Shown here piece after piece: positions 3,434-48,579 of a stretch of 64,000 nt of DNA. Both the position numbers and the translations under genes were made by a program. Below the pieces are notes generated by a model that was not told the DNA's origin, ran no database searches, and saw only the letters and a list, made by a program, of their open reading frames with translations. The DNA is from Antedon mediterranea (Eukaryota; Animalia; Echinodermata). The stretch's first letter is position 1; each line of letters opens with the position of its first letter. The DNA is taken from the NCBI RefSeq assembly GCF_964355755.1, contig NC_092676.1, positions 15,022,871-15,086,870 of the forward strand, given 5' to 3'.

Positions 3434-6400
3434 CAGCAATGTTTCTGCAAATTCTAGAAAAAAACTTGACCAGACCACAACAATCCCCTATATACAGTAC
3501 AAAATTCGAAAAAAAAACACCATTTATGTTCGTTTGCAATATGTAATACCATACATTTTTATATTATACAATGAATGTTTATGAGTTTAAAGGTTTCAGT
3601 CGATGTTATGATTAATAATAGAGTATGGTGGCGCAATTCACTTCACCTTTTGTATTTTCGGTCTCGTTGGCTCTTTCGACTTGCCCTATCGTGTTTATAC
3701 CTTGATCATCATCATTATCATGAACAGGAGTTGAATCTGATATTTCCAAAACAACATATTGTGTAACTGATTTAGTAGTACAAAAATATTGTTAAAATCA
3801 TTGAAGAAATATATAATACTATATTCATGGGCAACTAGTATTTTCTAGTAAATGCCTATGTTTTTTACAATTAATGTATTGTAAGTTTGTGGCGCAATTT
3901 ACTTCACCTTTTGTATTTTCGGTCTCGTCGGCTCTTTCGACTTGCCCTATCGTGTTTATACCTTGATCATCATCATCATTATCATCATGAACAGGAGTTG
4001 AATCTGATATTTTCAAAACAACATATCGTGTAACTGATTTAGTAGTACATGAATATTGTTAAAATCATTGAAGAAATATACAATACTATATCCATGGGCA
4101 ACTAATATTTTCTAGTAAATGCCTATGTTTTTTACAATTAATGTATTGTAAGTATGTGGCGCAATTCACTTCACCTTTTGTATTTTCGGTCTCGTCGGCT
4201 CTTTCGTCTTGCCATATCGTGTTTATACCTTGATCATCATCATCATCATTATCATCATGAACAGGAGTTGAATCTGATATTTTCAAAACAACATATCGTG
4301 TAACTGATTTAGTAGTACATGAATATTGTTAAAATCATTGAAGAAATATACAATACTATATCCATGGGCAACTAATATTTTCTAGTAAATGCCTATGTTT
4401 TTTACAATTAATGTATTGTAAGTATGTGGCGCAATTCACTTCACCTTTTGTATTTTCGGTCTCGTCGGCTCTTTCGTCTTGCCATTTCGGGTTTATACAT
4501 TGATCATCATCATTATCATCATGAACAGGAATTGAATCTGATATTTTGAAAACAACAAATTGTGTAACTGATTTAGTAGTACATGAATATTGTTAAAATC
4601 ATTGAAGAAATATACAATACTATATTCATGGACAACTAGTATTTTCAAGTAAAGGCCTATGTTTTTTACAATTAATGTATTGTAAATAGAATAATTCAGT
4701 TTATGCATTGCATTAAATTATGCAGTAATATGTTCTAATCACCTTTTAGTTTTTCGCTCTCGTCATCCTTTTCGCACTCCGCATTTGTGTCTCTCTCTTG
4801 ATTATTGTACTGTTTTTGGTCTTCAGCATTTTTAATGTCAACAAATGACAGAGGCAACATCAGACAATCATCACTAAATGGATTGGACGACTCACTGGAG
4901 TCAGATTTTTCTTCGATATAAAGTCTCAGATTATCATCTCTTATAGTTTGAAGCCAGTATGTCAAAAAGCTACGTTTAACAGATGATTTCAATTCTTTCG
5001 TTTCAAATATTTCATTGTAGAAAAATAAAATCAATGGCTGCTGCATCTCTTCAAATCCCAACTCACACATAGATTTAAAAATACGTGTAATTCGAAGGTA
5101 ATTATGAGAGGAACTGTAAGAATAAATAGTTTTCAGTTATATTGCATGTTTATAGACTGCCGACCACTATTTTGGTTAATGTATTTAAACTTTATGCTAT
5201 CAATGCAGTATAATAATTACCTACAATCATCATTCTCCTTTATAAGTTTACAAAATATGGTATTTTCTTTTTGAACAAACTATTTCGTTATTTCGTGTGA
5301 AACCGTACAATGGTTAGGGTTATATTTATATTTCCATTCATATTCATATTGTTTATTTTATTTCATTACAATTTAATGAAAAATAATTAAAGATCATCAT
5401 AATAGTTATCATCACCATTTATAGCGCACATTTTCTATGATAAACTCATAATTAGCGGCGCTTTACATAGTGGTTGAAATAAAAAGTCTAAGAGCTTGTT
5501 ACGAGTCCGTCACATCAGCGACCCTTGAATAAATAATAATATATTATTACTACATAAATACAAAGAAATAGAACTTACCGGTTAAGATGTTTAAATCTGC
5601 TTTCAAAATCATCAGATCTACACAGTTTATAGGAACCTTTTATCAATTTAATTCTAATGCCGTAAAATCCCAACATCATTTCCAAGCTATTGATAAATCT
5701 CTTGCGAGCAGCCGGATCCTTTTGAATTCTCTGACATGAAAGAATATTTTTTACAATAAATGTAATATAGCCTAAATACAGTACTTGGATTTTTGAATGG
5801 ATTTCCTAGAAATGTCTTACAAAACCATGACAAAACCTCGTATGTGAAATAATAAGTATTTATTTAAATTCAGAATTGTATTTATTTATTTATTATTATT
5901 TATATTTTACTGGTATCTGTGGCATATCCAATTTATTACGCATTTACAAAAAAAGAACAAATTCCATTTTAAAACTATCTTTTAATAGAATGGCGACATT
6001 ATGCTTCACGAAATTAAATTTGTGGCGGATCTACAACACCATGTGTAGGCGATTCGCCAGTTCGTGTGATGACGACACAGTGATGTTGCCGCTGTTCGTC
6101 AACAGGGAGGAGATCAAAGACATGTTTGGGTACAATCATGGTGACATTTTCGGCTTCATAGGTTAGAGTTTAGTGTTCAGTGATGTCAAAAAATGATGTT
6201 TTACCCCCAAATAAGTAGTTAACAACAAAACTGTAACTCTGTTTTAATTGATATATCATGTGTTCACTTTTATCTTGATTCGGTGGGATTTTCTATGTTT
6301 TTGGAGGTTTGCGGAAAAATATTATTGCAACAAGTGTATTATATGTTATTTCTGAAGCAGAAAACAACAACAACAACAAAACACCTGATGCGGCTAAATT

Positions 6401-25420: not shown

Positions 25421-26705
25421 CACCAAACCTATTCACCACAATACAATAGGCATAGTAGTAGGCCTATAGTTGATAACTTGCTAAACAACACGAATCCGAA
25501 AAAAAAACACTAGGCCAGCCTACTGTAATTTAAAGAGGTATTGTCGATCCAGTTTTTGGTCAATGAATAAATAATAAAAGCAGGCCACCGTATCCATAAT
25601 TGACGCGAATACTGTGACCGTACCCCTAGCAACAACAATACATTGTATGCACTCTAACTGTATCACTATCAAGGATAGTGTTGCAATTGATTATAGGCCT
25701 ATCCTAGAAGCAGCAGCCGAGAGAGACTCGGATCTTCTTGTTTAAATGTGATGGAAAGAAAAGAGGGTACTTTATTTATAATATACCTAGGCCTAGTCTT
25801 TTTGTTAACTGAACTAAAAAAAAAGTCATCATGATGATATGTACTGTAGGCCTATCATAGGCCTAGACCCGCTATGCCTAGCCAAGCTAGGTAGCTAGAG
25901 GGGAAGGCCTAGCCAACTTAGGTCTAGGCCTAGACCTAGTGCTAGGTACAGTAGGCTACTACTAAGGGAGCTATAGCCTAGGCCTAGTAGTAATAGCCTG
26001 CGCTAATGCACTTTGTCTAGGGCGGCCTAGGATTCCGGCGGCCAATTTTCTTTTTTTGTTTGATCTTTTTTTCTTCTCCACCGTGCTTCCTTGTTTGTAG
26101 ATCAAGTGTTTTGATGAGTGATGGCCTTTCTTGTACTGCATGTGGGAGGTATAATAATAAGGCCCTCATTAAACAAATAATTTAAGTAGGCTAGGCCTAA
26201 TAATAGATTTAAACAATTCAGTTTCCTGTTTGGTTATAGCCTAGGACTAATAGGATCTGGTCTAGCCTAGGGCCTATACCTAGCTATCTAGGCTGGAGGC
26301 CTTTCTATGTCAGTACTATGATGATTGGGAACTCTCTGAGTCCATCCATAACAAACATGATCATGAATTGATTGTGAGTATTGCCGGGCCTAGTTCTGTA
26401 TTTGCTTACTCTGAATACAGTTATTCTTTGTAATGGTGTTAGTAAATATTTGAGCAGAAAGACCATGGCAACGAAGTATACATTCTAAAATACTCATCAT
26501 ATGCAACACATGTATTGAAATGTTTAATCCAAGCAAGATGTTTTAATCAACTCAAAATTGTACTTTATTATTACCAAGGCAAGAATAAAGTCTGAATTGT
26601 ATTTGTGTCAACCAAGGAATATTAAATATCACAAAAGTTGACAAGAATCTTGTTATGTATCGGTGAATTCATTGAGTAGTAAAGTACAACTATTTTAATG
26701 AAACA

Positions 26706-29700
26706 ATGGCATCAACCAAAAAGTCAGGAAATAAAATTGTTGTTCCACTAACTAAAAACCTGATGACAACAAACGAAAAGGTTTATCGAATGCTGAAGAC
26801 ACCAGAAGCACAGAAATCTTTAAATCTTAATGACAAAATGCCTTCAATCTCATCTTTCTGTGGTGAGCATGTACATTTAAGAGCAATAGATATGGCAACT
26901 TGCTCTAGGTTATCAATGCAATCAGGAGATAGTCTACAGGTGAATCCGTCAATTGCAGGTATCCTTGTTATGTTAATAATATTATTCACTTTCTCTGGTT
27001 TGTTATTGGTGAAACTATGGTTCAGAACGACATTAAATTATTTATGTACCGAGGACAGTAGTCCACTACTCGTCTTTTTTTTTTAAAATTAGTCTCAAGC
27101 CCACAGACCTATTATTAAGTCAAGTCTATATTAAATAAAAAGAAACATATTTTTATCATACAACATTTTAGGTACAACTCTTGCCTTACTAGAAGCTGCA
27201 GAGAAGGGTGATTCAAACAAGGTACAACAACTATTGAAGGCAGAATACTTCAATGTTGATTACAAAAGAAATGAAGATTTTCGCACAGCTCTTCACAGAG
27301 GATGCCAATATGGCCATACTCAAGTAGTAAGGCAACTTTTAAAGGTAGTGCACCGTACAATTATTTAGTATACATAATTCAAACAGTATACTCAACATTT
27401 TGACAGGGAAAATAATTAAATGGCGAGTAATAACATGGGTGCCTTAATTTTGTCTAAATACAATTACAGGATTAAAAATTAATATAAATAGAGAATTAAA
27501 TATAAATACTTATTGTTTTGGTAATTTCATTTGGATGTTAACTTATTAAAATGAAATATTTTTATTGAATATGTTGTCAGGGAGGTGCAGACCCAAACTT
27601 TAGAATGAGCTCTGGAAAAACTTTATTGCATGAAGCATGTGTTTTAGGTCACCATGATATTGTTTTGCTTCTGTTGGACTTTATTCAAGATGTAGATACA
27701 ATTGATAACCAGGGCCAAAATGCATGTCATGTAGCCGCATATCATGGAGAGAATCGGTGCTTAGCAATGTTAGCTAACAAGGGTATGCAAATCATTCTCT
27801 TTTAAATAATAAATAAAATTAATAAATAAATAATAATAAAATGAAACTATTAATATCCTAAATATTATTATACAAATAATGAACGTTCATAAGTTGGATG
27901 GTGAGAATGTTATAGAGCAGTCAATATTTCATTTAATGAAATGTTCTCTCGATCCATTCAACGAATGCAATACATTCATTATTTGTTTTAACACACCTAC
28001 TGGCTTGAATGAATATTTATTCAATTTATCTGTCGGAAATCATTGACGGTTATTATAATTATATATATCGCATACTACAGTACACGACATTGATTTTCTA
28101 ACACGATTTTCAAAACAAATTTTAATTAAAAAATGAAATAACTATAGGTTTTATTATTCATAGGTGCTGATTGTGCACTTTTTGATAACAGAGGCCGGAC
28201 ACCAGCTCATTTAGCAGCGCAGAAAAATCATCCACAAATTTTGGAAAGCTTAAGTATACATGGTGTTGACATTGAAACTGCTGATGAGAATGGTAAAAGG
28301 CCATTGCACTATGCTGCTATGCAAGGAGGTAAAATTAACAACAGAAAAGTGTCCAATTTACAATACAATACTTAGCAATGTTCCTGAATATTGCTTCAGG
28401 TGATGCATGAGAAGCAATCAACACTATCATTATATTTGTAAAGAGTTACAGTATCATGAAAATGCCCAATATCTCCGACTAGTCCCTGCCACAGGTACAG
28501 GTAATCCCAAATTTTAAACATGCCAATTCTCATTTTTGTGTAGTTTCCATACAAAAAATTATCTTACTGTATTAGCTTTGCTAGCAAGTAATTTTGAATG
28601 AGCATTCCATATGATGGTATCATGAATATTTCAGATCCCAGGTCTTGCATTACAGAGTAAATAACTTTGAATTATGGTTGCAATTTACTGTTTTAAATAT
28701 ATGATTTTTTTTTTTCAGGGTTGGAATGTCTGGTTAAATTAATCCAATGTAATTGTGATGCATCGGTACATGATGCTTTAGGTTGTATTGCAGCACATTA
28801 TGCTTCGGCTTACAATCATATCGAGTGTTTACGCTTTCTCATCAAGCATGGTGCTACATTTACAAGTGTTGATGCATCTGGAAAGACCTTAGCTCATTGG
28901 GCAGCTCAAAACGGTGCTACAACAACTCTACATTGGTTATTTGAAAAGGGTGCTGATCCGAATATCCAAGATGGTATGAACAAAATTGAAACTAGATTTA
29001 ATTCATCACTATGACGAATTATATTGTTATATTGATTGATTTTGTAAGAATCTTTAATAATTTATAACATATGAAAAATAGGATCTTGCTATTAAAGTAA
29101 ATACAATAGCCGGTATCAAAATCCGATCAAAGATACCTCTGTGTATAATGTCATAAACCACCTTGTTACATAATAATAAAGACATGCGTATAATCTATAC
29201 ACTAAGAAATAAAATTGAACAGACAATACGGATGTAAAAAAAGTCTTATTTCGATCTCTGTACCTTGGGTTATAATAATGCATATAACCTAATTAACTGG
29301 TATTATGGTATCACAAATTTTATACCAAGCAAACAATGTAAATTGTAATATCTACACACAGATCTAATGTACTTTTTGTTTGAACCTATTTCCACAATCT
29401 TTTTTATATTATATAGACAATGGAAATACTGCTGGACACTTAGCAGCTGCAAATGGACATGCAAAGTGTTTTAATTGCTATCTTCAACACAGTGGTTGTT
29501 TAGAATTAACTAATAAACGTGATGAGAAAACTATCGACATTGCAAGAAGATTTGGACATCCATTTTTAATAAGCAGAGCATGTAAGTTGAGGCTATTTTA
29601 AAATAACCCAGGACAGATTATTACTGGTTAGTTTGGACTTTCACAATAATGTAAATATATTACTATATTTCAGGTAGTAATGATATTACTTGTGTACATT

Positions 29701-30154
29701 GTCAAGATAAATCAGATATGATTAACTGGGAAAAAAATCATCAACCAACTAGAGTACAAAGGTCAATGGCCAGCATACACAGTAACTCATACAAAACCAC
29801 GCTTCCAGACAAACAGTACGTTATTTTATAATACTATACACTATAAATTGTTTTATAAAACAAATAATAAATGTACTGTATTCGTTGAATGGTAAGAGTA
29901 TTTCTTCACAAGTTGAAAGGAATTTAAACTCATAAAATAATTTTCACCATCCAACTTCAACTCCAAAAAATGTACACTTTTTTAAAGTCTTAACTTGTAA
30001 GAATTGTCATCGGTTTTCATTCATAATATAGTATATTTTGATTATTTCCAGAAAGCTGCCTAAAACTAGAAAGAAAGTTTCAAAAAAAGAGAAATATAAA
30101 CATGAAATTGAGCTACCAAAACGAGACTTGGCTACGCGTTATTTCACTGCCTAA
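26706..30154 (+). CDS. Ankyrin-repeat protein, 8 coding exons, 485 aa as reconstructed
   Basis: Exons 26706-26958, 27172-27344, 27581-27782, 28164-28328, 28719-28973, 29417-29581, 29674-29815, 30052-30154; all GT-AG, phases match, total 1458 nt; repeated ankyrin motifs (GKTLLHEA, GRTPAHLAA, GKRPLHYAA, GNTAGHLAA). Confidence 0.88.
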
Positions 30155-30158
30155 TATT

Positions 30159-30272
30159 ATACAAATAATGAATGTTTATGAGTAATAATGGCACAAGGTG
30201 AATGGTTATAACCTTTCATCATTCACCTCATGCCATTATTTGTACCATTACACAACTATAAAACATTCATAA
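30159..30272. repeat. Short palindromic dispersed repeat, same family as 36036-36422
   Basis: ACAAATAATGAATG..ATGGCAC.AGGTGAATG / CATTCACCTC.TGCCATTATTTGTACCATT; other fragments near 27870, 29860, 40700, 48090. Confidence 0.6.
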
Positions 30273-30735
30273 CTTGTCATTTGAAATTGCACAAAAGGAC
30301 AGCGCGCCTGCTAACATATTGATGCAGCTGGTTGCAACATTCAAGAAAGTTCACATCAAACAATGTAGGAGTATCAGGATCATCCAGCACTTGCTTTTAT
30401 TTAATGTAATTCATTGTTACAGACTAAAATGTGAACAATCATCACAATGTGGCATTCCCAGAGCATGCATTCAACAGCCTAAATAAAATGTTTTATGTAC
30501 CATATTACTGTACCAACATTTAGTTGTATATAACAGCTTTTTGTAATTTTGCACAATTCCTACAGAAAACAAATATTTATATACTATAAGATAAGTTAAG
30601 CAGAGTAAATTCTTGCAAAGTAGTGTAGTGTTACCCAATTATTTTAGCATGTAAATTGACTAAAAAATTATCTGTTTTGAATAATGCAATTTCCATGTGA
30701 ACAATTTTTTGAACATCAAGAGAATAGTTGCTACA

Positions 30736-30862
30736 CATTTTGCAATGAACGGTTATCGGAGTCTCTGTACAAGCACTGCATTTTGCAATGAACGGTTATC
30801 TGAGTCTCTGTACAAGCACTGCACGGTTATCTGAGTCTCTGTACAAGCACTGCATTTTGCAA
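30736..30862 (-). repeat. Three tandem copies of the NSFL1C stop-codon region
   Basis: ACGGTTATCTGAGTCTCTGTACAAGCACTGCA occurs three times, with ~42-bp and ~31-bp periods. Confidence 0.9.
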
Positions 30863-33800
30863 CTTGGCATCTTCTATTGTTTCATTATCCACTCTGTACT
30901 CCTTATTTGGAAATGTTGTCATTAAAGCAAAGTTTTGACCAGCATATTGAGGACGTGATCTGTAATAATTTTACTACTTAAGAAAAACACTTTTAAAATA
31001 TGGTATTTGTGTTGCAAACAAACATGACAATAGAAGTGCAACTTTAATATGAATCATAATGTAAAATCAATTTTCATAATATACAAAGTTAATAAATAAA
31101 ATTATATTTTATCTGCTACACTGTAGTATCTTCTTTCACTATATTATACCTACATTCGAAAATATTATTATACTGTAGTACATATTAACAATTTCTAATG
31201 AGAAAAAATAATAAAATTGTTGTGCCCTAAAATTACAATTTTCCATGTACTGTATAATAAAAAAACATCAATCTTATATAGCACTTACTACACAAAGCCT
31301 CTTAGCGCTTCACATTATTACCCAATCATCAAACACATCTGGAAACATACTCACACATGATGTTGCAGCCAGTAATTGGCTCAGTTGTGTTTTGATGAGG
31401 CAAATGTAAGTAAAGTATCTTGCCTAAAGAAATACAAACAATGCTTTGGATTTTGGATCTCGCACTCAATAGTCCAACACACTGCACCACACACCGTGGT
31501 CAGGTTTAAGTATTTTTAAATTTCATAGCCATCCTCATCACCAAAACCCAGAAATTCTATAGAACCATCATCTCTATCATCAAATAAAAGAAGTGTTAGA
31601 TCATTTTTCATATCTTTTTTGGGTTGTGGGTGCTGTGAAAATTCTCTACAAACTATCACTTTGCTGGCCTCTGAACCATCTAATGCATTTGAAATTCCAC
31701 ACTTTAAAAACATCTTTTTAATTTTTTCTTCCGATACAGATTTCCAGGCTTCACTAACCCAGTTTATTACTTGACATCTTGATGGAGTCATCATAATTGC
31801 ATCAGTTGCCTTTTCTTTATTAGCCAAAACCCATGTTTTCCAAAGTTTATCCAACTTATTTGTGAATGCCATGTTTACACAAGCATCCATCATTCTAGAA
31901 ATAGAAGTACAGCCACCAGGTATACAAACTGTTGCAATGTTGGCATCTTCCAACAACTTGCATGTTGTAGTTGCATTGTAAGAATTAGGCCTATCCAATA
32001 TCACTAACAAAGGTAGACTTTCATCAAACTCTCTTAAAGCATCAAGTCTACTAAGCAACCACTTACTTTGAATGTGTCCATTAGAAGAAGCTCCTACTCT
32101 AACATTAGCAGGCAAGCAAAAGTCCGGCTTAATTGAGGGAGGAATATCTCCATTTTGTTTTTTGAAAATAATACATGCAGGTAGTTTGCAGCCATCAGCA
32201 CATACACACAAACAAACTGAAAATCCCCTTTTCTGTATTGTCAGTTTTTCATTATCATTGCTTGCTTCTATCAGCTCTTTACCTTCACCTCCATCAACAT
32301 GTTGTAATACTTGTGTTGATAACTCCTTTTTATTAGCATGTATAAATTCATCTCTGATGTTACCAACATGTATTAACTCATTTCTGCCATCATCTGTGGA
32401 CAACACTTTGATTAAACCTTCATTTCCAGATGTAGTTAACACTTTCATTAAATCTTCACTACTTGTTGGTTCAAATTGTAGTAAATCTTCATCAACATCT
32501 ATTAATGGCATCTGTATTAATTCTCCATCAGTTGCACTTGCTATTGTCTGCTTTACTTTCTGTTCCTGTGAGCTTTCAATCATACTATTAAAACGAACAA
32601 CAATTTGGTGCATATTTACAATTTGATGTGTGGATAAATGTAGATTCTTCCGCTTTTTAATGATTGTTCTTTGAAATAGTAACATTTCTTCCTGAGAATC
32701 ATCTGTACAATGTTCATTAGATCCTGATTGCATTGTAACATTGGATCGGGTCTTCCATCTCTTCAACCAGCCATTTGATGCAGTGAAATTATTAATATTC
32801 AGTTCCTTAGATATTTCAAAGGCTTTTTTCTGTAGCATAGAATTAGTTACTACTATTTCATTACTACGCTGTTGCTCCAAGAACACTAGTAGTTTTTGGT
32901 CCATTTCGCAACTCAGTGGTTTTTGACCACAACTTATCTTTTTCTTTTTCTTTAAACCTGATGAACCACAAAGAAGAAGCAACTCTTGGTAATTTCGGTC
33001 CCACTCACGGATACATTTTCTGTCACATCCAAAAAGCATAGCTGTTGACGCTTGGCTTGAATTATTTTCTCGATGCCACTGTATAATATCAACCTTTTCT
33101 TGCATTGTCCAAGACTTCCTTTTGACAGGAACATGCTCTAATTTGTCTTTGTTATGTCTTTTAGGTGACTTTTTTTCTTTATTTTTGGCCAAATTTTCCT
33201 CAGAGAACATCTTTTTCCCATTCATCTTTCTGTACTCAGTTAAGAAAATCAATTCTTATACTTTCACCAAGGAAACTGATAAGGGGAATTCTATTCCTGT
33301 TTAGCTGTAAGCTATTAATATCAGCGAATGGCAAATAGTGAAGTAGCACAGTGAACAATATATTTCATATTACGCTACAACTCAAATTTGTTTGTAGAAT
33401 GAAAAAACTAACAATAATCCTCCTCATCAAATATTAAGTATCTTACTATCAATAATTGACAATGGTCATTGCAGATACAACAAAAAAACAACTTGCAGAA
33501 CTACCTAACTTCAATCTCTAAATAGCGAGCTAACGAATTGTGTTCAAGTAACCCTTTTACACTGCCAGGAAATATGCAAATGTAACACAGATCAGCAACA
33601 ATCAAATGAGAAATTGGTGGCCAGTATAAAATTGACTGAATGAAAGTGGCTAATGAAGCAAAATGCATTTAGCGTCAAATTAACTTGATGCATGCCCATG
33701 TTCGCAATATACCGTACACAGTCGTTCTTTAGATATAAATCCGATTTGTTGGCATTAAAACAAATTGTAGTAGACTGGAAATATTGTACCTTTAGCAGGT

Positions 33801-36800
33801 GTAAAGAAATAGTATTATAAGATTAAAAATCACATTTTAAAAGACAATTTGTCCAGATTTGTTTTCAGTTCAGGAGTGTGAAAGGGGTATAGTATACTGT
33901 ACGATAATTTAAATATTAGGTTTAGCAGTTAATGTGTTTACATTCTCAATTCAATGTACAGTAAAAATACCAATGCTGTTATAGTGATAGATGTTATACA
34001 CAGTTAAATATTATTTATTTTCATTATGATATTGAAGATGTATTGTTTGCAAAACACACACAAAAATAATGAATAAAAACAAACTTTAAATAGGCCATTT
34101 AAATAAAATAAATACACGCAGAAAAAAAACACCACAAAATAAAGATTTTGCTTCTAAAAAATACCGGTGTCTGGAAGCCTGTTGATTATATTTGTCTTGA
34201 AGTTACAGTTTATTGGGTAAATACTTTAACAAAACTTTTGTAACAAATATTTTTATGCGACAATACATCTTTAATAATACTATGTTCATACCTATCTATA
34301 TCGATCAAATAAATAATAGTTCACAATACAACTCAATCAATAGTGGCAAATGACATACACAGTGCAACACTATAATTACAACACTTAATTGGCTTATCAA
34401 AATGATTTCAAGAGGTCTAGTTTAGCAGTTCCTTGTCAATGAACGAAACTAAGCCATAAACCCTAATATTAATTTATTTTCATTAATAATTAAAAGTATA
34501 TAACAGTATATAATATTTAATAATTCAGTAAAGGATACGCAACAATGAAATTTCTGATATTTCCTAATGTGTGAGTATTATTGAACTTCCCAACAAGTCT
34601 GTTGAACAAATTAAACAAACACTTTATTAGTTTAATTAATTAGTCATCATCTGATAATTCAATGGTTTATTAAAAATAAGTGGCATTGCAGAAAAATCTG
34701 AATTGCAAATTTACATTCAAATATAAAAAGTATAAAAATGTATATAAAATACTAGCAATTATACCCGCCCCAGGGTGGGTGTCAAAATTAGTTTAAAGCC
34801 TTCTCAGTACATACACCCGCTGCCAGTATCCTCCTATACTCACCAACTCCTCCACCTCTCTCCAATAACACCCCACACTCTTTTTAAAAAACAAATTCTT
34901 CCCAGTAAAAATTTAAATTCAACTTTAGCTTCAAAATGAAAGGGGTATACATAGTTATGATAGGCCTAAAACAGTATAAATGAATAGGTGTCATATTGGC
35001 TTAAAATATCTAATTTTGATACTGCAGCCCCGGCCTTCTTATCTCCTCTCACCATCCCAGCCAAAATCAACAAACCTTAACTTTTCCCAGTACAATTTCA
35101 ATTATGTTGTACTATTTCCTCCAAATTCCAGTATCTCCACCCTTCCCCCTTCCAACATGATGTGTTTAAGACGTGTGTTAAGCCATTACTCCCAACCCAT
35201 AACCCCTCAGTGGCAGTTTTCAAACGTAGTTTGTACATTACATTTTGCTATTGATTTTTGTTTTTCGTACCTTCTGTAGTAGATTCCATTCATTTTGATG
35301 AACTTTAATTGCAAAATAACGACAAACGTGCACGTTAAAATTTAATAATCGTGTGCTAAAAAATGTAAGTAATTTAATGCAAATTTGTGCAAAAATATAC
35401 CTGTTTTAATCGGTTATAGCTCCCCCATTTTTTAAATTTTATTATGGAAGCCAATCAATTCATGTAAAATGTATATCTACTAAAATTTCTCTCTTTCTCT
35501 TTCTTTCTCTCTCTCTTTTTTTAAAAGATGGCCTCGTATTTTTATCTACAGATGCTATACTGTATATAACATAAAACGTGTATTCCGTAAATACTTTATG
35601 CTTTATGACACAAAATAGGTACAATTCATCACTGTAAACATATTTAATTCATGTCATAGGATGGCACAATAATTGTCGCCCTTTATATTTGAACATGTTG
35701 CGTTTGTGCGGATAACCCTAAATCGTCAAAGTGACAGTTCAAATCAGGTATTACGAAAGCCAGGCAACTGAAACTGCTAATTCTGTTTTTTCCAACAATT
35801 CCTCATCTTGTAGATTTAATTATTAATTAATTAATCAAGATCATGTAAACAATCTAAAAATCGATCTCCAAAAATTCTGTTGCCAAATCGAATGTTCAAT
35901 GTTGTTATTAATTTTAAAATAGGTGGCGCTGTTGGATTCCGTGTTCAGAATCACAGTAATTTTTTTCTATATGCGAAAAGAATTTGTTAAAAAAAAAATA
36001 GAGAAAAAGTACAATTTAATGATCGTTAAATAGTGAGTATTATATAACACCTATATAAATTCCTGTCATTTGATTGGACGAATGTGGGTCACATGGCGTG
36101 CAATAGTACGCACTATTCAACGATCGTTAAATAGTACTTTTTGAAACATTTTTGTGTACGAAAAAAAAACGTCTAGATGTTATATAAAACAAATAATGAA
36201 TGTTTTGTATTCGTGTAATGGTACAAATAATGGCACTTGGTGAATGATGAAAGGTTATATCAACTCGGCTTTGCCTCGTTGATATAACCTTTCATCATTC
36301 ACCTCGTGCCATTATTTGTACCATTGCACTCATAAACATTCATTATTTGTATACTATTGCACACCACGTGACCCACAATCTTCCAATCAAATGACAGGAA
36401 CTTATTTAGATGTTATATAATATGGCATATGGAAGACTCACAATGTAGATTTATGTATGTTGCATACACATTTGTGTATCGGACGTTGTCTAGTAAGGCC
36501 ATGGATTATATTAAACCTAGTTCAGAGATCAACCACGGATTAACAAATGCTCTTTGTGATGCAACAATGATTTTGACACTGGCAATGAACAAACATGACC
36601 ATGATCAGCAGCTACGATGAACAATACTTCTCGATATATCACATGATTTAGATTCTGGTCAAGCTGTCAGCTGAATTAAACTGTCTGACATTACAAACCC
36701 TGTGAAGCCATGAGTTTGGACAATTTTACTAAAGTAAAAAAATATATTGGTGTTTGATATTACCTAGATCCATCAGCTAATCTTAACTGGATACTCGTGT

Positions 36801-39800
36801 GTGGTTGAGATGTGTCTACTTGTATTGCTTGTTGGCCTACAGATCCTGAGCTTGATGAAGCTGCACTGCTGGCCGTAGCTATCACATTTGGTGCTGGACT
36901 ATTAACAATGAATAAAGAGAATGAACAGACTGATTTACAACACACATTTTAAAAGGGCTGCAAAATGTACCAACTAAACCAATATAATTAAAAGAGGATT
37001 ATTAAACTATGATTGAATTACATTTTTTTAAATTACATTTTGATAAATATATTAAGAATTTAATTCACATTTTTATCAATTTGCAATTAAATGTGATGGT
37101 GTACAACACTTATGAAAATGACACTAAAAAGACATGGAATTAAGAATTTGTTTTTGTTTTTACTCTTCCCACCTTTTGAATATAATGAATGTTTTTTTCA
37201 TAGTTTATATTCAAATATGAGTGACTTTTCTGTACCTTCCTAGCAAATTACCGACACCAGAAAATGCTTTGACTTTGGGCTTAGGAGCTGTATACTCCTC
37301 TTCTCTATGATCTTCCATATCTAGGTGAACTTCACCACCCCTTGCCTGTTGTAAAAGTTCATGTGGTATTTCCCTATTTAAAAAGAAAATTAAGAAATAT
37401 TGTTAAATCAAATGTGATTAAATATGTAAAAAATGTGTGAAAACTTTAAACTCAATGAAAAATAATTGGGGTTTTTTCATAATTGTTATATACTGTATTC
37501 ATGTCATTTAATAACCAATCACACTGTTCACCTGCCTGCCATCCAACCTCCTCCTCCTGCCACCCCTTTGCTGCTGGCTATCAGGATTGTTGTACATCAT
37601 GAAATTAATGAGGCAACATTCAAAAGCCAGTTTATTATTCCTATTTTGCAATCAATCATGGACACACATATTTAAATACTGAAATTTATAATTACTGAAC
37701 TGAAATTCATATTACTGAACAGGATCAACAATTTAATAAATATAACTAAACAACAATAAACCCTTTCTTGTACTTGTCCTAGATCTGTGGTGTCCACTAA
37801 TAGGAGGTTCAGCTGTAAATCTGACAAAAAAAACTATACCCTTTGCTTATACTTCCAAGGAATGTTGCATTTTTTTTATCTTTGTAATCACGCAACTCTT
37901 CATCGTTGATGGTAAATCCATTTTTCCAAAGCTTAACTTTACAGTGCATTTCTTTTTCTTCTTTTTTCAATTTTTGTCCATGTACAGTTTGACTTGGTTT
38001 ATCTTCTGTGTCTCCTAATCTGTAGCCTACTCCAGCAAAATTCCTTGGTTTTGAAGCCATGATAGGATTGCTACCAGCAGATACTTCCTCTGCACCATGT
38101 CTGTGACATTTTAAATAGTAAAAACATTATAGTTCAAACTGTGAAATATTTACTTTAAATCACTGTTAGTGTTTAATAGAATACAATTATTGTAAACCTT
38201 TATTCAACTAATCTGTGGCTGCCATCTTGAATTGAATATGGAAAAGTAGCCCATACAAAGGCAGAACACAGATATACTCTTCTGCCCAACTTAATTGTAC
38301 TGAACATTTTAAAACTAGAAAAATGGTAATTTAATAATGTCTTACTCTTTAGCTTTTTTAAAAAGGTTGTCTACTATTTCACTTGTTTTCTTCTTTTTTG
38401 GTCCAACAACCTGCTGTCCACTGAAGCCAAAGTGCACAAATATATTATTGACAACAGTATCCAAAAACACACCCACATAAAAAAAATACATTCTTTATAT
38501 TATAATTGAACAACAATTTATTATTAATCATCAAATTATTATTAACTTAAATTAAATAATAACTCATACCCTGATGAGACATTTTGGTCACGGAAGGCCG
38601 CCGAAGGAAGCATTTCGCGAGTTTGAATAAATTTAGTGAAAACATTTTATTTGCACACTACAAACTGTTTCATGAAGGTGAAAAAAATTGCTAGGCTCTG
38701 ATAAAATAGATATAAAGTGCAATATTCACAGGAAGAGACTAACTAAAAGTTTTGTGGTTAATTACGATAAAAAGAGAAAAACAAGGCACTAGCTAAGTAG
38801 CTCAAATGTCCTCTCGTGTACGGTCTTAGGCCTAGCTTATAATACCTACTGTAGGCTTAGTTTTGTAGGCCTAGCTTGTAAACATAAATTAATCAGACCT
38901 TGATTTAAAAGGAGCGCCATGGCGCTGACGCTCCTTGGCGCTCCTGAAAACGATCAAAGGAGCGCCTAAAATAGCGCTCCCCAACCTGTTACAGTGCGTC
39001 ATAAAAATATATATAATGATAAGAATATTAACCCCGAATACAACACACTGTCTATATATAGTCGCGCAAACGATCTTTGTTATGGCTACCCCCGATAGGC
39101 TAGGCGCGGCTACGATCTTTGATGTTGCGAGAAAAATATCGTAAACAATTCATTCTAAATATAGTATCAGAACGTTCAGTCGGTCGCTCAAAAAGACTGC
39201 CGACAGAAGACCGTAATTATACAGACCTGGTTTTTTTGGTCACATGGCATGAAACGCGATACTCTATGCTTTACCGCAACATCTTTTTTTAACTCAGTAC
39301 GAGAGGGTGGCTGCCAACGATAAACAGTAATTAAGATCGTGATCGTGTACCTGGATTTTGTGTCACATGACATGAAACATAATACTCTCTGATCTTAACT
39401 GCTCACATGTTTTCCCCTCCAAAATCTGGTCGGGCCTTTTATACACATGTCGTAATCATTTTAAAAGGCTTAAGCCTTTATGTTAAATAAATATTAAATA
39501 ATATGGAATATATATTTATTTTGCATATATTTTGCTGGTGTCCTAGCCTAGGCTAGGTGTCGTTGTTTATAATTCGCTAACCCAAGGTAGGATTAAATAA
39601 TTTATAGTGTAGGCCGCCGAAACAAGACTAGATAGCCTCGACTCTCTCTCTGCGTGAGCTGCTGAGGTCCACGGACCCGATGTCGTCTCGTCGGCGGATT
39701 TCCGTCCAAATTAGGATAACCGATGCGTAGGCCTAGCTAGGGTGGCTACAAAAATTGATGTCTACTATCTTTAGATAGGATTTTAATTAGAAAACAATAC

Positions 39801-42755
39801 ATTGTTTGTTTGCATTGTCCATGCTTCTAAATAAAGGCGATGACAATGGTGTTTACTAACCCTACGAACCACCCTACGATCGACGCGTAGATAATTATCA
39901 TAACAATACATCGTAGACTACGTTCAGAGAACAATGACCTACGATGAATTTTACGTGCGAGAGTACCATTTCCGGCCATCTAGAGGTGTCATTTATCAAA
40001 ATTCGGCTCGCCACAGGCCCAACCATGGTGGGCCTGTGCCTCGGGTACTTAATCAAAATAATGGCTCTCCTCAACATATTGAGGAGAGCCATTAGGAGCT
40101 CTCCTCTTATATTTATAAATCAAGGTCTGAATTAATATTAATATATTTTAATAAGACACTGTACCTATGATCTGATCCACCTGCATAAAAGCGTTGTCCT
40201 TCATCTTCATCATCAGTGTTTTGGTTTTTCTTCATATCATTGACTGTCACAACCCTGCAATTAAAAACATGAAACTTCTAAGGACTGTTTATGTTGCAAG
40301 TTAGTTTAGCGTTTAAAAAAAACACAAATTGTCGTGTCAGCAAAAACAAATTACAGTTAAAAACATGCAATCGATTGGATGTTAGAACTCATTTAACCAG
40401 TTATGCTGGCTGTTATGGGTCAACTACTATAGTACTTTGGAAACCCTCAGACCCAATTAGTCAATTCTAGAAGTGATAACTTAGATTCTGTTAATATCAC
40501 AAACATGCCATTTTAACAAAAACATCAATTTTAGTGGATGATGACTTTGGGCATTTGACATAATTCACAATTTACATTTAGGTTGTTGCAAAAAGCAGAT
40601 AAAAATCAATTTAGCAAAAATTGTGTATAAACAATACACAAATCTATTTGGCAAATAAATTGTTATTTGATGTTATGCAGCAGACGTAATTATATATTAT
40701 CATGTTTATTTGATAATTCTAATTCCCATAATCATCCAATAAAATGACAGGAATCTATTCAGGTGTTATATATTAGGATTTAGTAAATTGAAGCTGATGT
40801 ACCTATTTGACTTGGGTCTTGAAGTTGTTGGATTTGATACAGGAGGAGTAGCATCTACAATGTCAGGTTGTGGACGTTGAGTAGCGGCTGATTCATCGAC
40901 AACGTCCATTGATGTATCATCTTCTTCATAAAAACTTCCAAGCGCAACCTATATAATTATTAAAGCAACATTCTTTATTATAGAGAAATCATATTAACAT
41001 AAATATTAGTAACCATTAGTGATCTTTATCATCAAGTCTTTTTTATTTTGTATCAAATCAACCAATATTCTGAAAATTTAGTTTTACATTGTTTAAGCAC
41101 CCAATTCCAAGTTGTTTTAAAATATAGCCGATTGAAGACAGGGTACAATGATCTTCAGAATTTGCAAAAAATGAGTATTTGAATATTCTGCACTTCAAGA
41201 TACAAAGCTGTAAATTGGTATCTAGGGTCACTTATTACCAAATAATGCTCTGATCTCAAAATATATGTATTTCATATACTTTTCTATTTAATTGCTACCG
41301 AAAACTTTTATATTACTTAAAATTATGATAATATTTTGTATACTAAAAGTATGTACAGTATGTATAACAGTATTTACAGTCATATAAAAAATAATTATAA
41401 AGTTCTGTTTTACATAATTGAATTTTTTTATTTGTATTCTATTTGAAGTTTGGAATGTCAAAATGTGATTTCTATCTGTAGGTAGCTTGTACTGCCGTCC
41501 TCCATGCCCTTATACAACCAGGCCCGTAGCCAGAATGGGTCCAGGGGCTGAAGGCCTGGAAGCTTTGGCTCTCAGAGCATACTGACCTTAAATTTTGTGT
41601 TTTTTTCGCATGTGATGTGAAAAAATCTGGGCAAAAAGATTGAATTGAACGTGATATTGTGCGTCCAGAAAAGCCTGGCCAAAGCACGCGATTGATCAGT
41701 CAATTTTTCTGTCATAATATTTATAACCATCATCTCAATCTCACGCTCAGCAGTGACTTTGACATCGGACACAAATTACAAATCACAAAATATAATTCTT
41801 GCCTCTTGTACAAAAATTAAGTTTTTTAGACAAGCAGTTTTTGATAAAATACAATTTTAGTTACTTGTTACTTTAAGACTGCTCACCAACTTTTGACATT
41901 TCTGTCCTATCTTTTATCATTCCAAGTCTAAAAATAATTTTAAAATGTGGTCCAGAATTGGAACCGTGGTCCCAATTGCCTCCAAAATCACATATCTATC
42001 TGTATTTTGGGAAGATCTTTTTGGTCGGAGTTCACAAATTTTGGAAAAACTAATTTTTTACTAGATCGGCTGGACATTCGCTATATTATGTTTCGAAGTT
42101 GACCTAGGCATATATACTAGTTTAATTGATGTTCACCCTGTAGTGCCATTGTGTCTTTACCGTGGGAAATTTATATTTATATTCGCCGTCGAGTAGATAA
42201 AAACACGCACAAAGAAAACGATTAAGATTAAAAAACAATTTATTTATATACGCAGCTGGTGAATGTTTTTTAACTGGGTAATCTCTCCCATATAGGCCTA
42301 ACTATCTATTGGGCCTACTAGCCTAGGAGGCCTAGGCCCTAGTTAGGCCTACTACTACCAGGCCTAGCCTAGGCCCTAGGCCTACACTTGTTTGTCAGTT
42401 TTTTGTTATTGATTTCCGGTGTATTTTTGGATTTTCCGATGTTAAAACATACTTCTCCACTTTCATTTCATGGGCTGTTTAGGAGGACTCTTATTAATAT
42501 TATCTAGGTAGCTAGGCCTACCTATGCATTTTACTCCCAGTGTAGAGGTAGCTACACATCGTGGGTAAGTGGATTCTTAAAAGAGGCCTCTACACTCTAG
42601 GCCTAGGCCTAGGAGTAGTAGGCTAGCCGGCTCGCTTGCTTTCATACCTGTAATTGCCATCCTGATGATTCGAGGTAAAACTCGGCCCTCATTGAATCTA
42701 CACCAGTGATATTAGCGAACTCGGTAATCATGTGCTTATTCTCTTCACTTGCCAT
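30827..42755 (-). CDS. NSFL1C: NSFL1 cofactor p47 (UBA-SEP-SHP-UBX adaptor of p97/VCP), 9 exons, 381 aa as reconstructed
   Basis: Exons 42755-42648 (FANITG..AEFYLESSGWQLQ), 40948-40803, 40254-40165 (GQRFYAGGSDHS), 38420-38346, 38100-37840 (KLWKNGF), 37373-37236 (AFSGVGNLLG), 36898-36764 (IQLRLADGSR), 34598-34539 (LVGKFNNTHT), 30959-30827 (FALMTTFPNKE..NAVLVQRLR*); total 1146 nt in frame. Confidence 0.93.
31260..31500 (-). mobile_element. Old SINE-like fragment
   Basis: TATATAGCAC..AGCGCTTCACA tail-like segment and AAAGTATCTTGCCTAAAGAAATACAA core-like segment. Confidence 0.4.
31516..33225 (-). CDS. pogo/Tigger transposase-derived protein (Brinker/HTH, CENP-B-type HTH, degenerate DDE_1); 569 aa from the first ATG
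   Basis: Uninterrupted ORF. RKSWTMQEKVDII..FGCDRKCIREW, FTASNGWLKRWKTR, CADGCKLPACIIFK, CIPGGCTS..MDACVNMAF, WVSEAWKSVSEEKIKKMFLKCGISNALDGSE and the EFLGF tail are pogo-family hallmarks. Confidence 0.9.
   Translation of the reverse strand: MNGKKMFSEENLAKNKEKKSPKRHNKDKLEHVPVKRKSWTMQEKVDIIQWHRENNSSQASTAMLFGCDRKCIREWDRNYQELLLLCGSSGLKKKKKISCGQKPLSCEMDQKLLVFLEQQRSNEIVVTNSMLQKKAFEISKELNINNFTASNGWLKRWKTRSNVTMQSGSNEHCTDDSQEEMLLFQRTIIKKRKNLHLSTHQIVNMHQIVVRFNSMIESSQEQKVKQTIASATDGELIQMPLIDVDEDLLQFEPTSSEDLMKVLTTSGNEGLIKVLSTDDGRNELIHVGNIRDEFIHANKKELSTQVLQHVDGGEGKELIEASNDNEKLTIQKRGFSVCLCVCADGCKLPACIIFKKQNGDIPPSIKPDFCLPANVRVGASSNGHIQSKWLLSRLDALREFDESLPLLVILDRPNSYNATTTCKLLEDANIATVCIPGGCTSISRMMDACVNMAFTNKLDKLWKTWVLANKEKATDAIMMTPSRCQVINWVSEAWKSVSEEKIKKMFLKCGISNALDGSEASKVIVCREFSQHPQPKKDMKNDLTLLLFDDRDDGSIEFLGFGDEDGYEI
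34752..34785 (-). mobile_element. Helitron-like 3' terminus
   Basis: Hairpin ACCCACCC-TG-GGGCGGGT 7 nt upstream of CTAG|T on the minus strand; 5' end not located. Confidence 0.55.
36036..36422. mobile_element. Palindromic non-autonomous element with nested inverted repeats
   Basis: Outer arms ~36038-36110 and ~36352-36422; inner near-perfect hairpin ~36190-36349. Confidence 0.75.
38894..40129. mobile_element. hAT-like non-autonomous element in NSFL1C intron 3
   Basis: TIR CAGACCTTGATTTA / TAAATCAAGGTCTG; AATTAAT on both flanks; subterminal GGAGCGCC/GGAGAGCC motifs; CpG-richer than the host intron. Confidence 0.75.
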
Positions 42756-44477: not shown

Positions 44478-44549
44478 GCCCCAGTGGTCTAATGGTTAGG
44501 ACATCTGCATATCAAGCAGGCGGTCCGAGTTCGAGTCTCGGTTGGGGCG
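44478..44549 (+). tRNA. tRNA-Asp(ATC)-like cloverleaf, probably repeat-borne or a pseudo-tRNA
   Basis: Acceptor GCCCCAG/TTGGGGC, D arm GTC/GAC, anticodon stem TCTGC/GCAGG with loop ATATCAA, T arm CCGAG-TTCGAGT-CTCGG, G discriminator, T5 run just downstream; truncated copy at 44842-44902. Confidence 0.6.
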
Positions 44550-48100: not shown

Positions 48101-48579
48101 AAATGACAAAACAATCTACGTAATGCAATGACAAAAATATTTCATTTGATGAAAGATGAAATGTTCTATTTTCACAATATTAAATATTTGTACCATTACA
48201 CTTTAAACAGTTATTCTTTGTACTGTCTTGTTTGCAAATAAAGAGGTCTCATTAAAATATGGTATATTCTTCATGTTTATGTATATTTGTTTGACTAAAT
48301 TGTTTTATTATTCAGTGGCTACACTGAACTTGGTATTATTACAATCATGAGTAAAATACAAGACAAACATTAATGCTTTTGACATTTTGAACAAAATTAA
48401 TAACTTTAATTTCATTTATTTATTCATTAACTTAAATTCTTAGGATCTGCTAACTTTATAATTGATTATTAGCATACAATTGTTTTATTTATTGTAATTA
48501 GTTCACAGGTATAACTTGTTATTAAGTTTGTTAATATCTACTTATACTTAAGGTCAGTTTTTGATCAAATCATCCATTT

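Follow-up and report, generated by a model that had tools for sequence, protein, structure and literature searches.

A transposase frame that stands open inside an intron of a host gene raises the question of whether it is a mobile passenger, a gene in its own right or an exon of its host. Such a frame is found in the last intron (intron 8) of the gene for p47 (NSFL1C), a cofactor of the protein-extraction machine p97, from Antedon mediterranea, a feather star, within a stretch of 64,000 nucleotides (nt) of contig NC_092676.1 (RefSeq assembly GCF_964355755.1, positions 15,022,871 to 15,086,870 of the forward strand), which is referred to here as the window. An initial annotation of this DNA had proposed that the frame derives from a domesticated pogo transposase and could be spliced to p47. 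On the evidence below, we consider it probable that the transposase serves as an alternative last exon of p47, likely a minor one, and that a p47-transposase fusion isoform is thereby made.

The pogo open reading frame (ORF) occupies 31516-33255 on the minus strand with 579 codons from stop to stop, which makes it the longest of the 20 frames of at least 100 amino acids in the window, and the other two frames across it are interrupted by 45 and 74 stops. As originally described, it is uninterrupted and lies on the same strand as p47, between exons 8 (34598-34539) and 9 (30959-30827); from the first ATG it encodes 569 residues. According to the ORF list and translation, the entire transposase-derived coding exon would span 31516-33229 on the minus strand, as do all of its parts given below, with the stop codon at 31518-31516. 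Three Pfam domains, CENP-B_N, HTH_Tnp_Tc5 and DDE_1, are detected in the product. A lysine-rich linker of 35 codons (33124-33228) precedes the ancestral transposase start and is followed by two helix-turn-helix domains placed by both Pfam and the structural model, namely CENP-B_N (HTH1, residues 35-83, 32977-33123) and HTH_Tnp_Tc5 (HTH2, residues 107-165, 32731-32907). Behind them come His206, which replaces the first catalytic Asp in the alignment (32608-32610), a degenerate repeat insert of 117 residues in units of 11-14 residues after the first catalytic motif (32233-32583), the DDE_1 core with Asp411 and Asp447 (residues 336-506, 31708-32220, again from Pfam and the model), and a tail that resembles a TND-interacting motif, composed of a hydrophobic stretch, an acidic linker and FxGF (residues 543-561, 31543-31599). 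Neither the insert nor the tail is mentioned in the initial annotation. The fold predicted from a 90-row alignment (pLDDT 74) comprises the two helix-turn-helix domains followed by an RNase H-like core, the linker, the insert and the tail being of low confidence, and the structures nearest to this model are those of Mos1 and CENP-B; prediction of a 915-residue fusion from a single sequence gave no usable model (pLDDT 35). Just behind the transposase stop, in what would be the 3′ untranslated region (UTR), lies a high-copy repeat (window 31265-31534), which resembles the relic of a tRNA-derived short interspersed nuclear element.

The second and third catalytic residues, Asp411 and Asp447, are separated by the DD35D spacing. 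Placement of the ORF as Passer-like rests on its domains and on this spacing, which defines Passer in the accessible text of PMC7386202 and PMC9976928 but is also found in Fot, and the tree described below contained no named Passer or Tigger references. Atlas leads pointed to POGK-like clusters at 0.80, which is under the atlas bar; all atlas matches were below 0.9.

Whether the transposase has been domesticated can be judged by comparison with a second crinoid. A search of the protein collection with the ORF returned five matches among 6687 candidates, the best of which was XP_033111851.1 from Anneissia japonica (LOC117112790, annotated as "uncharacterized protein"), with 51-54% identity to the ORF product and 51% over the whole length. 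This is a computed gene model, and both its orthology and its junction are read from the protein record. Anneissia belongs to Comatulidae and Antedon to Antedonidae, two different feather star families according to the accessible text of bioRxiv 2024.08.14.607903; no date for their divergence was found in the literature consulted. The Anneissia protein has the architecture UBA-SEP-UBX-HTH-HTH-DDE_1, in which the UBX match covers only profile positions 3-45 of 82, and joins the transposase to p47 exon 8, so that, going by this model, the position of the element is conserved in a related species, as the initial annotation had suggested should be checked. Identity between the two species is unevenly distributed, reaching 90% in HTH1, 63% in HTH2 and 60% in the DDE core but 28% in the insert, compared with 78% in p47.

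Further comparison was made with a set of 81 proteins, composed of 75 of 150 representative matches (length filter 380-540 residues) and six others. His at the position of the first catalytic Asp occurs in two of them, Antedon and Anneissia, whereas 69 have Asp; the first motif, reported from the start as altered (NMHQI), has the consensus D-E-T among the 79 relatives and reads NMDQ in the nearest ones. The intact DDD triad of an active pogo transposon is therefore lacking in both crinoids, owing to His206 and, in Anneissia, additionally to Asn758. The insert is likewise confined to these two of the 81 proteins, in which the first and second Asp positions are 204 (Antedon) and 227 (Anneissia) residues apart, against a median of 106, and its repeats can be aligned between them. 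The family has 89 conserved sites, 49 of which are intact in both crinoids; the changed ones comprise, among others, D206, T208, W384, H416 and P445 and residues around all three catalytic positions. Comparison thus shows, at the level of predicted proteins, that fold residues were kept while active-site residues were lost in both species. In a FastTree tree, in which P0001 was flagged for composition, the two crinoid transposases are sisters with a support of 100 and adjoin P0003, a relative with an intact triad.

The surroundings of the frame were also inspected for traces of mobility. No terminal inverted repeats flanking the ORF rose above chance (5 of 40 simulated flank pairs scored equally high), and the CpG observed/expected ratio was 0.22 in the ORF, 0.36 in the p47 coding sequence and 0.77 in the window; the reported absence of inverted repeats and the CpG poverty shared with the host gene were thereby borne out. 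No second copy of the ORF was found elsewhere in the window. In three DNA runs of one sample, the ORF was covered each time by one unbroken contig with 0-1 differences, which argues against near-identical copies only, and the repeats on either side gathered many contigs. When metagenomes were scanned for the ORF protein and for P0003, its closest relative with an intact triad, there were 143 and 588 pattern matches, respectively, none of which led to a confirmed locus. Domestication of the transposase in intron 8 is well supported by the sequence data, because an orthologue is present in a second crinoid family at the same place (in a gene model), is constrained and carries inactivating changes common to both. 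By the same comparison, the frame is shown to predate the split of Antedon and Anneissia and to be constrained at the protein level.

Domestication leaves the question of how the frame would be translated. The candidate 3′ splice site of the transposase exon is the AG at 33230-33231 (minus strand), at the position homologous to the junction in XP_033111851.1. It is in frame with the phase-2 donors of exons 2-8, and joining exon 8 (34539) to 33229 gives 908 residues with no stop. The statement that the donors of exons 7 and 8 are of phase 2 and that splicing to 33229 keeps the frame was thus reproduced by computation; since the donors of exons 2-8 are all of phase 2, a frame match alone is a 1-in-3 event and picks no particular donor. 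The Anneissia protein, when searched against the window by tblastn, aligns in its p47 part up to the last codon of exon 8 and resumes in its transposase part at 33228. Irrespective of how well that model is supported, the linker is colinear from end to end, starting at the first lysine, with 35 residues in Antedon and 36 in Anneissia (score 43; reached in 0 of 5000 shuffles), and the chance of 34 open codons in intron 8 is approximately 0.08. In Anneissia, no Met occurs between the junction and Met365, which sits within HTH1, behind the conserved basic arm. Most Met-starting relatives begin 4-11 residues ahead of the conserved HTH1 Trp, a region in which both crinoids lack a Met. Conservation of the linker from the first codon onwards, together with the lack of a start codon in the Anneissia linker, makes it likely that upstream exons supply the translation start.

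Several observations weigh against a fusion isoform. The acceptor, initially described as moderately strong, is weaker than that, with a score of 2.6 and rank 29 among the 212 AGs of intron 8; 14 reference acceptors (eight from p47 and six read by eye from a neighbouring ankyrin-repeat gene), each left out in turn, score 1.3-11.8, and two of the 14 fall below it. In Antedon an ATG is present at 33225, 4 nt behind the acceptor. Transcript evidence comes from X1, the sole spliced assembly, which is taken as RNA from an automatic call; assemblies were compared over 30860-34900, so that a joint to 33229 from exon 7, or from any exon before it, would show itself there by nothing more than a break or a loose end. 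The contigs of X1 list the canonical GT-AG joint 34539->30959 and none to 33229, the loose ends listed include none that would join exon 7 or a preceding exon to 33229, and one contig (31401-34023, 2623 nt) runs across the acceptor unspliced. Among proteins, a search of Antedon RefSeq gave only the canonical 381-residue p47 with no isoform label, and the ORF's own protein is absent from the protein collection. No canonical Anneissia p47 was present among 42 matches, the fusion record being the only one, and that model is short by approximately the first 21 residues. Protein searches returned no junction-spanning fragment from a third crinoid. The absence of the joint from X1 lowers the odds of a fusion and does not exclude it, because contigs drop rare forms; X1 may also contain DNA, and an unspliced contig is then not necessarily RNA. 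The DNA runs continue over 30960-31110 and 34601-34742, where contigs of X1 are lacking; a gap in a single study is no evidence, so these two were not read as a 3′ end, and contig depth did not serve to order the gene's parts. The proposal of a fusion isoform has gained indirect support from a RefSeq model with the same junction and from a conserved linker without a start, whereas the junction itself is missing from X1, which has the canonical joint only.

The same observations can be read differently. The frame might be a domesticated stand-alone gene nested in p47, similar to POGK or TIGD, with its own promoter or a non-coding first exon in intron 8 and a start at ATG 33225 or Met41, in which case the Anneissia fusion would be an artefact of gene modelling. 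The ATG immediately behind a weak acceptor would suit such a gene, as would the X1 contig that continues unspliced for about 800 nt upstream of this ATG and the lack of a listed fusion joint. We nevertheless regard it as unlikely, given that ATG 33225 corresponds to Ile in Anneissia, where no Met occurs before the inside of HTH1, that conservation extends upstream of the single Met common to both species, that an unspliced leader would carry nine ATGs, and that no CpG-rich patch lies immediately upstream (observed/expected 0.38-0.62 in 33000-34500).

A mixed state, in which the fusion is real in Anneissia or ancestral while Antedon expresses the exon mostly by intron retention or from a new ATG, and so makes a rare fusion together with a free protein, is very unlikely in our estimation. 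It would account for Met1 and Met6, which are new and found in Antedon only, and for the X1 contigs that cover the two parts of intron 8 unspliced, and PGBD3 provides a precedent in making both forms (PMC2268245, in the text accessible); yet the Antedon linker has kept its frame and length from the acceptor codon onwards, and with DNA possibly present in X1 the unspliced contigs may not be RNA at all. We find it hardly credible that the frame is a relic without function, or that it was inserted recently and can still move: 579 codons have stayed open in both lineages at 54% identity, HTH1 is more conserved than p47 itself, the D-to-H replacement is common to both crinoids, and inverted repeats, high CpG and a near-identical second copy that would break the DNA contigs are all lacking.

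If the fusion isoform is accepted as the probable reading, it is of the known host-transposase type with an unusual host partner. The closest precedent is CSB-PGBD3, which, in the accessible text of PMC2268245, likewise has a transposase ORF in a host intron, an in-frame acceptor lying a few bases ahead of the first Met, and an alternative 3′ terminal exon beside a full host mRNA. It differs in being derived from piggyBac, in having a chromatin remodeller as host, in its still visible element ends, and in that the fusion is abundant and was proven by RT-PCR and western blotting, whereas the feather star candidate is derived from pogo and is at most minor in the RNA seen. KRABINER and SETMAR (bioRxiv 10.1101/2020.05.07.082677, accessible text) similarly arose by splicing capture at an acceptor just upstream of the ORF with retention of DNA-binding domains, and in KRABINER the insertion is also in the last intron. 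The hosts of the tetrapod fusions, however, contribute mainly KRAB, SET and SCAN domains, and UBX has no mention in the main text of that survey, while the feather star host is a ubiquitin/p97 adaptor that would retain one half of its UBX domain. POGK and POGZ, as described in the accessible text of PMC7386202 and PMC9976928, also carry an entire Passer-type transposase with DD35D spacing behind host domains, and POGK has an altered triad (DN35D); they differ in being vertebrate proteins with KRAB or zinc fingers and in having no repeat insert, and no alternative host isoform is described in those parts of the text. The Anneissia orthologue shares architecture and junction with the Antedon candidate and departs from it in the changed second Asp (N758) and a longer insert. 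In a separate case, XP_018105792.1 from Xenopus laevis (P0066) was seen to combine a Chromo domain with a whole pogo transposase and is named "plectin isoform X1" by its source.

No p47/NSFL1C-transposase fusion was found in the literature searched, where entries in supplementary tables or subscription papers could escape notice, and the main text of a metazoan survey of transposon-derived factors (PMC10027918) mentions neither crinoid nor echinoderm nor UBX. Among the 19 long or top matches, no other p47 fusion with SEP or UBX was present; a platypus protein (P0020) considered as such was rejected, since it consists of p47 and a low-complexity tail and lacks a transposase domain. A search with the entire Anneissia protein gave three matches among 7989 scored candidates, one of which, XP_038052932.1 from the sea star Patiria miniata (P0019, [quoted passage not shown]), also has the UBA-SEP-SHP portion of p47 ahead of a DNA transposase and no working UBX. 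Its transposase is of the piggyBac type (DDE_Tnp_1_7) with a zinc finger and is joined at the exon 6 boundary, unlike that of the feather stars, and it is possible, if the model is right, that it represents an independent p47-transposase capture. Its first catalytic motif looks altered (TGES), the usual piggyBac form presumably being IDES.

How the fusion would be made and what it could do may be outlined as follows. Exon 8 would at times be spliced to 33229 in place of exon 9, and the transcript would end at a poly(A) site further downstream in intron 8, as in the exon trap of CSB-PGBD3. Between 31515 and 30960, the poly(A) signal scan found no AATAAA; an ATTAAA occurs at 31048, accompanied by weak variants within 31145-31108. 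The product would keep the UBA domain (ubiquitin), SEP and the SHP box, with partial binding of p97, and would lose a working UBX, the second half with the F-P-N loop being gone; in exchange it would gain a basic linker (a possible nuclear signal), two helix-turn-helix domains and a DDE scaffold that does not cut. Deletion of UBX from yeast Shp1 causes partial loss of Cdc48 binding, and an additional mutation of BS1/SHP is required to abolish that binding (PMC3572051, accessible text). Because yeast Shp1 without UBX keeps partial binding of Cdc48, weaker binding of p97 should remain in the fusion.

The tail of the fusion may additionally bind a chromatin reader of the LEDGF/HRP2 type through FxGF. 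The TND-interacting motif is defined, in the accessible text of PMC9987994, as a helix with hydrophobic residues, an acidic linker of 8-16 residues and FxGF, and POGZ is listed among the FxGF partners of LEDGF in that of PMC11910589. The tail fits this definition with an acidic linker of 9 residues (10 in Anneissia), its helix being weakly modelled. Within the last 90 residues, FxGF occurs in 16 of the 81 proteins, where 0.006 would be expected for every 90 residues, and an acidic FxGF motif ends 14 of the 79 free pogo-like transposases, including P0003, P0004, P0022 and P0023. Since 16 of 81 proteins carry it, the motif arrived with the transposon and has been retained. In free pogo elements, it may serve the transposons themselves for targeting, and its presence in 14 of 79 hints that some of them carry a LEDGF-type targeting motif. 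Of the roles that can be envisaged for the fusion, a chromatin-tethered p97 adaptor is predicted as the most likely, tentative as this assignment is; recruitment of p97 by the fusion to particular DNA sites, where proteins would be removed or remodelled, is speculative.

A wider proposal, which we put forward with considerable doubt, is that p47 became a DNA-binding adaptor of p97 on at least two independent occasions in echinoderms, through capture of a transposase as alternative last exon, which was a pogo element in the feather stars and a piggyBac element in a sea star. Each time UBA-SEP-SHP would have been retained and UBX given up, and the feather star product would be a sequence-specific, LEDGF-docked p97 recruiter, a targeting factor of transposase origin for extracting proteins from chromatin and not a KRAB-type repressor. 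In the host-transposase fusions known so far, it is mostly transcription or chromatin domains that acquire DNA binding. If true, a conserved p47 fusion would link the p97/ubiquitin machine to specific DNA sites, and transposase capture would be extended to crinoids. Together with the Patiria model, such a fusion would also suggest that the series of phase-2 introns of p47 has served repeatedly as a landing place.

The host gene lies on the minus strand of the window, and its nine exons encode a protein of 381 residues identical at 381/381 positions to XP_071957050.1 of Antedon mediterranea. Exon translation and homology place coding exon 1, where UBA starts, at 42648-42755, followed by exons 2 (40803-40948), 3 (40165-40254) and 4 (38346-38420), exon 5 (37840-38100), where the SEP domain starts according to its profile, and exon 6 (37236-37373), which has a p97-binding box near 37264-37238 that we take to be of the SHP/BS1 type. 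UBX starts in exon 7 (36764-36898), which has a phase-2 donor and into which an X1 loose end at 34600 runs. Exon 8 (34539-34598), also with a phase-2 donor, leads to exon 9 and, in the Anneissia model, to the transposase exon. Exon 9 (30827-30959), the canonical last exon, encodes the second half of UBX with an F-P-N loop at 30913-30905, presumably equivalent to the motif R-FPR. Within the 3′ UTR of p47 (window 30736-30854), tandem duplications of 31 and 43 nt repeat the stop-codon region, and intron 7 contains a palindromic element similar to a miniature inverted-repeat transposable element (36038-36422), with partial copies at 29849-30277, 40725-40775 and 48185-48222. The multi-exon ankyrin-repeat gene (approximately 26700-30150, plus strand) converges tail to tail with p47. 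Two weak microRNA matches to Rfam, below the cut-off and located on an intronic hairpin repeat, were rejected. An OGFr_N domain fragment is present at 4735-5136 (minus strand), and a tRNA-Asp-like call with anticodon ATC at 44478-44549 (plus strand), located in a duplicated repeat between TA runs, is probably repeat-derived.

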